DNA from: Octopus vulgaris
Lineage: Eukaryota
Direction of reading: 5' to 3'
Assembly (NCBI GenBank): GCA_951406725.2
Contig: OX597817.1
Coordinates: forward strand, 55,118,001-55,182,000
Length of the DNA: 64,000 nucleotides
A program made the translations under genes and the position numbers. Shown in pieces: positions 4,645-47,331 of this stretch; within the stretch, counting starts at the first letter, position 1; each line of letters begins with the position of its first letter. The notes beneath the pieces are model-generated. The model saw nothing but the letters and a program-made list of their open reading frames with translations. It did not search any database and was not told the DNA's origin.

Positions 4645-4787
4645 CCTGTCTGTGTTTGCCTTTCAAGTGCTGCGGTTTTACTGAGATCTCCTTTTAGTAG
4701 AAAGAATAGCTATAACTCTTTGACTGCTATTTCTAAATTCGGTGTGTGGTGAGGCAAATCGTTGCTAAACCCTTAATTACTTAGTAT
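4645..4787 (+). mobile_element. Diverged partial copy (terminal ~145 bp) of the 589-bp hammerhead-bearing unit
   Basis: CCTGTCTGTGTTTGCC...AAACCCTTAATTACTTAGTAT aligns to 4848-4992 with several substitutions and indels; followed by a TA-rich tract. Confidence 0.9.
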
Positions 4788-5294
4788 ATATCTATATATC
4801 TATATATATATATATACATATATATCTATATATCTCTATCTTTCTTACCTGTCTGTGTTTGCCTTTTAAGTGCTGTGTTTTTACTGAGATCCCCCTTTTA
4901 GTAGAAGGAATAGCTATATCTCTTTGACTGCTATTTCTAAATTCGGTGTGTTGGTGAGGCAATTCGTTGCTAAACCCTTAATTACTTAGTATTACTTAAA
5001 TTTTCCTCGAATGGGGCTTTTACATACCGAAATCTACTTGGTGTAATTGATAATTATCCCTAATTAATTAATTTCACCCTTTTATTATTACTGATAACCA
5101 TATTTTATCCCAGTAAATGACCACAGCATTTTGTCTTGGCTGCACGCGGGTGGAAGGGGGCTGGTGACACAAACTTTCATTCAAACTTTGAATTTCGTGG
5201 TACTGGTCATGCTTTGGCTCGCTCTGACACTGAGTTGAGATGACGCATTCTAGTATCTCAAAATTTAATATACAATTATTCACAATTGTAGTAT

Positions 5295-5386
5295 CCTGCG
5301 CCGATGAGAGAAGAAGTCTGGGTAAAGTAGAATTTTCTAATTCTTATGATATCCTAAAACTTGATCTCGAAACGTACGTCCGTAGG
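5295..5386 (+). ncRNA. Type I hammerhead ribozyme motif (core variant CCGAUGA), copy 1
   Basis: Stem I CCTGCG/CGTAGG (one G-U); core CCGATGA; stem II GAGA...TCTC closing a long insert; GAAA; stem III C-GTAC-G; GTC cleavage triplet, predicted cut after 5380. Confidence 0.75.
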
Positions 5387-5883
5387 TAACTTAAAATTGC
5401 ATGATGGATTGCCGTCATTTCATTCTTTCTTTCTTACCTGTCTGTGTTTGCCTTTTAAGTGCTGTGTTTTTACTGAGATCCCCCTTTTAGTAGAAGGAAT
5501 AGCTATATCTCTTTGACTGCTATTTCTAAATTCGGTGTGTTGGTGAGGCAATTCGTTGCTAAACCCTTAATTACTTAGTATTACTTAAATTTTCCTCGAA
5601 TGGGGCTTTTACATACCGAAATCTACTTGGTGTAATTGATAATTATCCCTAATTAATTAATTTCACCCTTTTATTATTACTGATAACCATATTTTATCCC
5701 AGTAAATGACCACAGCATTTTGTCTTGGCTGCACGCGGGTGGAAGGGGGCTGGTGACACAAACTTTCATTCAAACTTTGAATTTCGTGGTACTGGTCATG
5801 CTTTGGCTCGCTCTGACACTGAGTTGAGATGACGCATTCTAGTATCTCAAAATTTAATATACAATTATTCACGATTGTAGTAT

Positions 5884-5975
5884 CCTGCGCCGATGAGAGA
5901 AGAAGTCTGGGTAAAGTAGAATTTTCTAATTCTTATGATATCCTAAAACTTGATCTCGAAACGTACGTCCGTAGG
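5884..5975 (+). ncRNA. Type I hammerhead ribozyme motif (core variant CCGAUGA), copy 2
   Basis: Identical to 5295-5386, offset 589; predicted cut after 5969. Confidence 0.75.
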
Positions 5976-6170
5976 TAACTTAAAATTGCATGATGGATTG
6001 CCGTCATTTCATTCTTTCTTTCTTACCTGTCTGTGTTTGCCTTTTAAGTGCTGTGTTTTTACTGAGATTCCCCTTTTAGTAGAAGGAATAGCTATATCTC
6101 TTTGACTGCTATTTCTAAATTCGGTGTGTTGGTGAGGCAATTCGTTGCTAAACCCTTAATTACTTAGTAT

Positions 6171-6317
6171 ATCTATATATATATATATATATATATATAT
6201 ATATATATATATATATATATATATATATATATATATATATATATATATATATATATATATATATATATATATATATATATATATATATATATATATATAT
6301 ATATATATATATATATA
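6171..6317. repeat. (TA)n microsatellite
   Basis: Direct reading. Confidence 0.95.
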
Positions 6318-45100: not shown

Positions 45101-45559
45101 GATTGTTGTCGGTGTATCACTTTTAATGTTGGTGTGGTGGTAAATGTATGTGGTGGTGAGAATGTTTGCTGCAGTTCTAGTGAAAGCGGTGATGGTATAG
45201 TAAAGTTGGGAGCCGGTGTGAAGAGTGGCGGTGCAACGGTGGTCTGTATGGTGTTGGTCTTGGTCGCGTCTGTGGTGCTGAGTCGCGTTTTGTGGTGCGA
45301 CGGTAATTGTGGCTGCGGTTCTGCTGCTGTTGTTGTTGTCGGTGTTGCTGCTGCTGCTGTTTGCACTGGTGCTAATGTTGTGGTTGGAGGAACAGGTGGT
45401 AGTGTTTGTGAGGTTCAGGGGCAAATAAGTATATTGATGATTACACCTAGAACGTTTCAAAGAGAGACAAAGGGGGGATAATTCACGTATAAAGATGCAC
45501 ACATGAACACACGCATACTTAGATGTCATTAAGTGTGAATGGATGTATTGATGGGGACA

Positions 45560-45860
45560 TATCTGTCTTTACACAACAAAACAACGGTTATATGGGAATG
45601 TACCAACTCTTTCGTCAACCTCTCAAGACCGGAGATTGAGGTTTGCTGACCGCTGCTGGAGAAGAATAGAACTTGTGAGTAATGTGTTGGTGTGGACACC
45701 AAACCATGGTACCACAGCGGCTGGAAGACCACGGAAGACGTATATACAACAGCTTGCAGAAGATGTTGGATGCCAGGTTGAAGACATAAAAACACTAATG
45801 GAAGATAGTGAGAAATGGAGAGTGGGTAGTCACGCTGGCCCGGGCAATCAGCCTGGTCGG
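45560..45860 (+). mobile_element. RTE-clade LINE 3' fragment
   Basis: LYGNVPTLS...RRLRFADRCWR...VLVWTPNHG...GRPRKTYIQQLAED...MEDSEKWR matches the RTE C-terminal motif (RLRxAGHxxR...GRP...DR..WR). Confidence 0.8.
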
Positions 45861-46102
45861 ATGATGCCTCGAAAACACACACACACATACACGCACACGT
45901 ATATATATATATATATATATATATGCACAAATTGAGATAGGGGTTGTAAATGCAACCCTCCATGGGATAACAAATATCCAATATACTGCTAGTGAAGTAC
46001 CCAACAAAGTTAATACATAAATGTTAAGGATTGCGATGCAATCGATTCATTTACTGTATTATATGGGCAAAGGTAAAATGATTTGCCACAAATTACTAAT
46101 AC

Positions 46103-46315
46103 AAGATAAGAAAATGGAGAGGTACATCTAAATCAAATATCAATTATCAGATAATACTCAATCACATACTTTATTAAACCACATACTTCATTATTCTTCT
46201 GCTTTTTTATATTTAACCCTACAGCCTCTTATGTGGTGGTTTAATAAAGTATGTGATTGAGTATTATCTGGTAATTGATATTTGATTTAGATGTATTTCT
46301 CCATTTTCTTATCTT
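46103..46315. repeat. Inverted repeat, ~80-bp arms with a 53-bp spacer
   Basis: 46103-46182 is the reverse complement of 46236-46315 with about 3 mismatches; the right end abuts (TA)n. Confidence 0.9.
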
Positions 46316-46900
46316 ATATATATATATATATATATATATATATATATATATATAGAGAGAGAGAGATAGATAGATAGATAGATAGATAGATAGATAGATA
46401 GATAGATAGACACACACACACACACACATATATATATATATATATATATATATATATATATATATATATATATATATATATAGATAGATAGATAGATAGA
46501 TAGATAGATAGATAAATAGATAGACACACACACACACACACACACATATATATACACACATATATATATATATATATATATATGTGTGTGTGTGTGTGTG
46601 TGTGTGAGTGCGAAAAAGAAGATAATGCAGAAATTGACATGAAGACATCAGTTTATTTAAAGATATTCAAATCTATATAATGATATTCCAGTCCTACAGC
46701 CGTTTCTATATCCAATTAGTTCAACTACAGAAACTTTACGATTTCTTTTAAAAGTCTTAGAAAAAGCTGAACGACTGCCATGTGTAACTGGTACATTTTT
46801 AAGGACCACCGAAATGCTGGTAAGAATTTTTTCCAGTGCGCTAACAAACCGGTCACATCACCACCTTGACTGTATATTATATATATGTATATATATATAT

Positions 46901-47331
46901 AATAAATATAAGGGTAGCAAAAAATTCTAGAAAAAATTTTCCGCTACCCTTATATTTATTAATTAATGATTTTTTGGCTAATTTTGAAATTAAATCAGCA
47001 GTTTATATTTGCTGCTGAGTAGACCGCGCGATTGCGGTAAGATTTGAAAATTTAGGGCATATGTGACTGGAGGCTTCTTTACCATAGCCTCGTGGACATA
47101 TACTCGTCCTAGGCTCTCTGCTGACGAGGCACGCCAGATGTAAATGAATTTAATTTAATTTAATTAATTCATTTGGCAAAGTTTTGCCGAAACTATGCAT
47201 AGTCCAGAGATGAAAGGGGTAAACGTTTTTATTTCTCATTCTATTTCAGAATTGCAACTATTTAGCGGTATGAGTTTGGCTGCTCTTTCTAGTGAGTCGA
47301 ATGTCCTACATGGTCATTCCTTATATTGTTG
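46901..47331 (+). mobile_element. ~430-bp hammerhead-bearing element in (TA)n with a 5' fold-back terminus
   Basis: 18-bp inverted repeat 46901-46918/46943-46960; internal hammerhead; 3' TTTGGCTGCTCTTTCTAG motif similar to the 589-bp unit; TA repeats on both sides. Confidence 0.75.
47115..47210 (+). ncRNA. Type I hammerhead ribozyme (canonical core, extended stem II)
   Basis: TCTCTG CTGACGA GGCA [GCCA..AAATGAATT..AATTCATTTGGC insert] TGCC GAAA CTATGCATAG TC CAGAGA; perfect 6-bp stem I, palindromic stem III; predicted cut after 47204. Confidence 0.92.

Follow-up and report, generated by a model that had tools for sequence, protein, structure and literature searches.

Animal non-long-terminal-repeat (non-LTR) retrozymes are dispersed, non-coding, low-GC tandem units that each contain one type I hammerhead ribozyme with a palindromic helix III suited to dimeric action (Cervera and de la Pena 2020, PMC7229834). 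An origin of retrozymes from Penelope-like elements (PLEs) was suggested by Craig et al. (2021, PMC8557442) and has been argued by Li, Clavereau and Pollet (2026, bioRxiv 10.64898/2026.07.22.740005), who conclude from co-occurrence and homology to PLE pseudo-LTRs (pLTRs) in vertebrates that PLEs mobilise them. PLEs of the Hydra clade, such as Hydra-1_Obim, are described as having a (TA)n target, a hammerhead in the repeat, partial tandems, an inverted truncated copy, and a one-sided tail (PMC8557442). In vitro, the purified protein of the PLE Poseidon PAc from Anolis acts on AT-rich DNA, where both strands are cut and extended, and two internal start sites on the RNA define the "tail" (Frangieh et al. 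2024, PMC11167929). Here, we describe three hammerhead-bearing elements, E1, E2, and E3, in a 64-kb stretch of the Octopus vulgaris genome (contig OX597817.1, positions 55,118,001 to 55,182,000; hereafter the window). We consider it highly probable that E1-E3 are non-LTR retrozymes that were pasted into (TA)n in trans by a Penelope-like reverse transcriptase (RT)/GIY-YIG enzyme, most likely one of the Hydra clade.

The class of element is already known, and the three families add members to it. The idea put forward in a preliminary description of the window is not new: non-LTR retrozymes (PMC7229834), their proposed PLE origin (bioRxiv 10.64898/2026.07.22.740005), and the PLE footprint of two start sites (PMC11167929) are all in print. 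A literature search that did not extend to Repbase, Dfam, or the supplementary files of either PMC7229834 or the 2026 preprint found no description of such families in a cephalopod, and a term search of the main text of an octopus repeat annotation, which lists Penelope-like families, found no mention of ribozymes or retrozymes (PMC13282606). Most worth following, in our view, is that the two arms of an insertion begin at different start sites in families without visible homology to their likely partners. This near-strict division of sites between opposite arms extends the in vitro picture of PLE insertion.

Three non-coding hammerhead families

A scan of both strands of the whole window with a type I hammerhead descriptor returned exactly four matches (Table 1), the same four as in the preliminary description. 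There were no matches with a stem I of at least 6 bp and a stem II of at least 4 bp in 100 block-wise dinucleotide shuffles of the window. Each of the four hammerheads has a 6-bp stem I (with one G.U among the six pairs in E1), a 4-5-bp stem II closed by G-C, a GUC triplet, and a stem III that forms a perfect palindrome; this confirms the architecture first reported. Two corrections are needed. The hammerheads of E1 and E3 are not minimal, since they have a long stem II with 61 nt between the core halves, whereas that of E2 has a short stem II; and the canonical core (CUGANGA...GAAA with an NUH site) is present in E2 and E3 but is replaced by CCGAUGA (U4C) in E1. The CCGAUGA core was found in 82 of 82 E1 motifs from 30 partly overlapping loci.

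For three loci holding E1, E2, and E3, no Rfam model reached its gathering score. In an Rfam scan of the whole window, the 150 listed of 455 matches were all microsatellite-driven miRNA models. Comparison of genomic copies, made by eye rather than with a formal statistic, bore out the expected stem covariation: among five variants of the E3 group, double changes leave stem I and the palindrome, complete or nearly so, in place, and stem II is retained in a subfamily of E2. The young copies of E1 differ too little to be informative on covariation. In folding predictions, the minimum free energy (MFE) structure of E1 and E2 dimers is a double hammerhead, and helix III has a pairing probability of about 0 in monomers. 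Monomers are therefore predicted to be inactive and paired hammerheads to be favored for E1 and E2. Dimeric action has been described for metazoan hammerheads (PMC4209133, PMC7229834).

The units from cut to cut are 589 (E1), 353 (E2), and ~469 nt (E3) long, with a GC content of 0.37, 0.42, and 0.35, respectively. When circularised, the units are structured (z = -4.8, -6.6, and -4.8), and their longest ATG open reading frames (ORFs) encode 49, 38, and 32 aa, in agreement with the earlier statement that no recognisable protein is encoded. The units contain no ORF with RT and GIY-YIG domains, and a tblastn search of the window with PLE proteins gave no match. Exact motif counts in the 2.8-Gb genome were 247 (E1), 474 (E2), and 297 (E3), with 0 in reversed-pattern controls; these are counts of motifs, not loci, and miss diverged copies. 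They were used in place of the initial search candidates (~1850-2080 per element), which were not taken as copy numbers. Matches to each element are spread over many contigs, and tandem arrays reach ~10 units, with E3 mostly at ~1 unit. Between-locus distances place E1 as the youngest (0.0125) and E3 as the oldest family (0.056), and no significant similarity was found when E1, E2, and E3 were compared with one another. E1 was also found on contigs from sequencing runs whose RNA origin is a guess; the records of its matches among those runs list no RNA source, and the contigs show no strand, end, or circle.

Judged by every feature that sequence allows to be tested, E1-E3 are three independent, dispersed, non-coding families of non-LTR retrozymes. 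E1 and E3 differ from the retrozymes of PMC7229834 in exceeding their 150-450 bp range (both fit the 51-972 bp given by Li et al.) and in their long stem II, and E1 differs in its U4C core. The words "inverted" and "microsatellite" are absent from the main text of PMC7229834.

The preliminary description had treated the three elements as one system whose co-occurrence was notable. In sixty 10-kb stretches at fixed positions (600 kb), we found seven intact type I hammerheads of at least six kinds, compared with 0-1 match in each of eight shuffled controls, which extrapolates to roughly 33,000 hammerheads per genome with a wide margin. The three insertions in 64 kb compare with 0.75 expected (Poisson ~0.04 by hand calculation, for a window that was picked for them). 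Because hammerheads are this common genome-wide, three families in one window do not amount to a system.

Insertion footprint

The ends of E1-E3 copies were mapped in 96 loci (30 E1, 39 E2, and 27 E3) picked from the best search matches; the search query for E2 spanned the arm junction. In the sense of the hammerhead, 3' ends fall at two fixed sites, A and B, downstream of the cleavage site, at ~+200/+305 in E1, +172/+218 in E2, and +135/+228 in E3. One or the other site was used by 47 of 56 ends in E1, 65 of 69 in E2, and 41 of 44 in E3 (153 of 169 in total). Directly after the 3' end, (TA)4 was present in 44 of 56, 56 of 69, and 32 of 44 cases, respectively, against a background of 3.8%. The 5' ends of the mapped loci are scattered, without a clear pile-up at the cut site. 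A 17-nt box lies 45-52 nt before site A (distances taken from printed sequences) in E1, E3, and two further families (L035 and L238), and E2 lacks it.

Most insertions consist of two arms joined head to head, with an overlap of mostly 0-5 nt. Among simple two-armed loci (21 of 30 E1, 28 of 39 E2, and 13 of 27 E3), 16, 24, and 11 cases, respectively, paired an A end with a B end, whereas 0, 1, and 0 had both arms ending at one site (51 versus 1 in total); one end lay elsewhere in 5, 3, and 2. In the 16 E1 loci with A and B ends, the longer arm ended at A in 9 and at B in 7, and because either arm can be the longer one, this fits two independent primings. In all 96 loci, which are best matches to the unit, the arms hold unit sequence alone, and every arm that exceeds the distance to the cut site crosses the ribozyme junction intact. 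The interval from A to B appears as a one-sided tail of ~105 (E1), 46 (E2), or 90 nt (E3).

E1-E3 thus present the features of PLE-type insertions: partial tandem, inverted 5'-truncated copy, one-sided tail, and two internal start sites. The "fold-back 5' ends" of the preliminary description are, by end mapping, inverted, 5'-truncated second arms. Its microsatellite setting was right for (TA)n, the target of the families, and wrong in giving (TAA)n a similar role, as the (TAA)n beside E2 in the window is atypical (1 of 69 E2 ends). Two differences from described systems stand out. E1-E3 are ORF-free and have longer tails than the 30-40 nt of Hydra-clade PLEs (PMC8557442), and their arms nearly always start at different sites, whereas Poseidon PAc shows no strand difference in start site (PMC11167929). 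We also considered twin priming of the classical L1 type, with a single linear RNA as template, and rejected it: the arms overlap in sequence, and their 5' ends are not tied to the start of the other arm.

Two further observations concern individual loci. E2 loci L049 and L050 may represent one duplicated insertion. In E1, 7 of 56 5' ends lie in a pyrimidine tract at +44 to +57 (window positions 4645 and 4840, and L255, L256, L257, and L260), five of them at +44 to +46; the cluster may mark a pause site, a hot spot of microhomology, or the start of transcription.

Enzyme and template

Searches of the genome found at least seven Hydra-type PLE families (ORFs of ~720-980 aa) and two Neptune-type groups. 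The labels follow the definitions of PMC8557442 and should be read as provisional, since they were assigned from motifs and from a comparison by eye with Hydra-1_Obim rather than from a tree. Pfam gave no match on the Hydra-type proteins; homologues of these proteins carry precomputed PF26215, and the nearest homologue with a name comes from Argonauta. Hydra-B has the DKT and CxCX5C motifs that define the Hydra clade (PMC8557442) and looks like Hydra-1_Obim by eye. Long intact ORFs were present in 30 of 30 sampled Hydra-B loci (at least 63 matches listed) and were 95.6-100% identical, 10 of them being identical. From its sequences, Hydra-B is probably active at present; the family (L165-L194, e.g. 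L169:1489-3669:-) is very young, with many identical intact 711-aa ORFs. In the Hydra-A and Hydra-C proteins (L121-L134, L375, and L388), the CxCX5C linker is missing and a long insert rich in Asn and Ser is present, yet copies of these families end in (TA)n.

In the two best-scored families, Hydra-A and Hydra-B, copies end against (TA)n at two fixed positions 3' of the hammerhead that they carry (+60/+215 and +37/+108, respectively). Their two-armed loci used mixed sites in 11 cases versus the same site in 1 (12 Hydra-A loci) and in 3 versus 0 (3 Hydra-B loci). The earlier proposal that several microsatellite-linked non-coding hammerhead families are mobilised in trans by a PLE RT/GIY-YIG enzyme is thus strengthened by a footprint shared with candidate enzymes. 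Mobilisation by a PLE is well supported because E1-E3 carry the footprint described for the purified protein (PMC11167929). Li et al. reached the same mobilising partner by another route: they argue from co-occurrence and from homology to pLTRs in vertebrates, and we argue from the insertion footprint, in families without detectable homology to the pLTRs of sampled partners.

Under the model we favor, tandem copies would be transcribed, and two hammerheads would pair through the palindromic stem III and excise a unit-length RNA, as predicted for E1 and E2; this RNA would probably be circularised by RtcB, as in other animal retrozymes. The enzyme would cut (TA)n and prime reverse transcription on both DNA ends, starting at two fixed positions within the RNA, 130-305 nt beyond the cut site, one for each end, and would so leave the footprint observed. 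As seen in the mapped copies, each arm would cross the ribozyme junction for 0.1-10 units and stop at a scattered point, and the arms would be joined head to head. Long arrays would afterwards be partly expanded in place. That a single PLE complex, probably a dimer, holds one circular RNA and primes the two strands at different obligatory sites, with recognition through a short shared box and a fold instead of pLTR homology, is a tentative and rather doubtful extension of this model.

Because the arms cross the ribozyme junction intact, their template must have been either an uncut multimer or a circle closed by ligation. We regard the circle as plausible rather than proven. In its favor, variants found in at least two units were present on both arms in 25 of 33 (E1), 6 of 6 (E2), and 55 of 58 (E3) cases, the within-locus polymorphisms of E1 are nearly all private, and the circular units fold stably. 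RNA editing fixed in the copies was also considered and rejected, as locus-fixed E1 variants show no asymmetry (A>G 9 versus T>C 7). In four E1 loci (L255-L258), interior-unit variants recur with a period of 2 or 3 inside otherwise homogeneous arrays, which may reflect local block duplication, multimeric templates, or assembly effects.

Several results weigh against the favored model or its circular template. The loci were best matches and the E2 query crossed the arm junction, which biases the sample toward young copies with two arms. Variants shared between arms are also expected from a homogeneous donor array, and opposite arms of E2 are hardly closer (0.0090) than different loci (0.0095). 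The period-2 and period-3 variant patterns inside arrays could not have arisen by copying of one monomeric circle. The MFE structure of the E3 dimer differs from a clean double hammerhead, and of nine Xenopus retrozyme dimers, one cleaved (bioRxiv 10.64898/2026.07.22.740005). The U4C core of E1 is a natural hammerhead variant that is less active in vitro, yet sufficient in a viroid (PMC3088659). The hammerhead was dispensable for PLE insertion in vitro, where mutants left insertion unaffected and uncut RNA was the main template (PMC11167929). No autonomous partner was identified among the PLE families sampled, which are an incomplete set and whose pLTRs showed no blastn similarity to E1-E3, and a shuffle-tested alignment with eight pLTRs (omitting the 842-aa family, in which no hammerhead was located) gave 2 of 200 at best. 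Neptune-type copies likewise end in (TA)n, with a tail of 45 nt compared with 46 nt in E2, so the mobilising clade is unsettled. The long stem II and long tails of E1 and E3 tie them loosely to Hydra types, and the short stem II and 46-nt tail of E2 could point to Neptune; both indications are weak.

Some of these results bear on the strongest alternative, in which the same enzyme leaves the same footprint, the template is an uncut linear read-through of the donor tandem, and the hammerhead is largely idle or trims the RNA, with no circle formed. This has a real though clearly lesser chance of being correct. It is favored by the in vitro mutants, by the spread of E1 despite its weakened core, by the periodic variants, which fit a multimeric template, and by the 5 of 56 E1 5' ends at +44 to +46, a possible transcription start. 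It is opposed by the double changes that maintain the hammerhead fold in relatives of E3 and by the private nature of nearly all within-locus polymorphisms of E1 (3 of 93 recur in another locus), since linear copying is expected to transmit array heterogeneity; circles have, moreover, been shown for coral, mussel, and axolotl retrozymes (PMC7229834).

It is improbable that E1-E3 are mere pLTR ends of coding PLE families beyond those sampled, amplified as truncated tandems. In Xenopus, 24 of 57 retrozyme families matched transposable elements, and 21 of the 22 were PLEs (bioRxiv 10.64898/2026.07.22.740005); the octopus repeat annotation has 31 recently active Penelope-like families, more than were sampled here (PMC13282606). 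Against these precedents, the units are closed, ORF-free tandems of 353-589 nt, the arms hold unit sequence alone, albeit in loci chosen as best unit matches, and neither blastn nor the shuffle test found a resemblance to pLTRs of the sampled families. The possibility, raised in the preliminary description, that all three are ordinary pLTR fragments does not hold for those families. E1-like (U1) matches beside Hydra-E and Hydra-F, considered as partner pLTRs, proved to be nested retrozyme insertions.

Mobilisation by the abundant R4/Dong long interspersed nuclear elements (LINEs), or spread by recombination as DNA-level satellites or fold-back elements, is largely refuted and very unlikely. 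In favor of it, E2 in the window is flanked by (TAA)n on one side and by an R4/Dong-like fragment on the other, and arrays show local duplication. Against it, (TTA)n adjoins only 1 of 69 E2 ends, the arms vary in both length and junction, and two fixed internal 3' ends with inverted arms are a PLE footprint and not that of LINE target-primed reverse transcription or terminal inverted repeats.

The families bear on two questions, the role of the hammerhead in PLEs and the return of retrozymes to genomes. If the extension to one PLE complex and one circular RNA is correct, these young non-coding families would be minimal substrates for work on RNA-circle transposition of Penelope elements and on the hammerhead's part in it. 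Both questions are directly testable because the families are short, young, and ORF-free, have mapped start sites, and share the genome with intact candidate enzymes.

Elements in the window and related loci

The features of E1-E3 in the window are listed in Table 1. The sequence at 4645-4787 is a separate and older E1 fragment. The main E1 insertion ends at site A (~+200 from the cleavage site) against (TA)n at 6168-6317. E3 is a normal insertion with A and B ends. In E2, the B end is lost beside the R4/Dong-like fragment, and the ORF neighboring its second arm has a zf-RVT match below the Pfam cut-off.

Table 1. Positions of E1, E2, and E3 features in the window
Feature	Coordinates	Strand	Description
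Older E1 fragment	4645..4787	+	5'-truncated; spans unit positions 57-200 and lacks a hammerhead; site A end abuts (TA)n; 93.7% identical to main insertion
E1 insertion	4840..6170	+	Single arm, 2.25 tandem copies of 589-nt unit, 99.7% identity between copies
E1 hammerhead 1	5295..5386	+	Core CCGAUGA, long stem II; predicted cut 5380/5381
E1 hammerhead 2	5884..5975	+	Predicted cut 5969/5970; one cut-to-cut unit is 5381-5969
E2 arm 1	37102..37312	-	From unit position 312 through the cut site to 170; site A end abuts (TAA)n
E2 hammerhead	37265..37309	-	Short stem II; predicted cut 37271/37270
E2 arm 2	37321..37573	+	Inverted, unit positions 52-304, no hammerhead; end at neither site, against R4/Dong-like fragment
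E3 short arm	46900..46948	-	Inverted; ends at site B (~+228) against TA tract
E3 main arm	46935..47333	+	~0.9 of 469-nt unit; ends at site A (~+135) against TA-rich tract
E3 hammerhead	47115..47210	+	Palindromic stem III of 10 nt; predicted cut 47204/47205

Beyond the window, more non-coding hammerhead families akin to E3 or E1 were seen (L035:1-1060, L134, L165, L238, L125, and L106). They often sit beside or inside other PLE-type insertions of one (TA)n tract, and L134 likewise has the CCGAUGA core. The pLTRs downstream of the ORF in Neptune-type elements (L391-L393) have an apparent minimal hammerhead with, by eye, the U3-A8 core covariation described in PMC4209133.

Two other kinds of mobile sequence were noticed in the window. 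Broken frames at 3951-4552 (-) resemble a Tc1/mariner transposase remnant by eye and have no Pfam match. A non-LTR retrotransposon at 29852-32640 (-), which we take to belong to the R4/Dong clade, is a near-full, frameshifted copy with RVT_1 matches, and 3' fragments of the same kind lie at 37560-38551, 39538-39989, 25893-26219, and 17630-18290; the main copy and all of these fragments are tied to (TAA)n.

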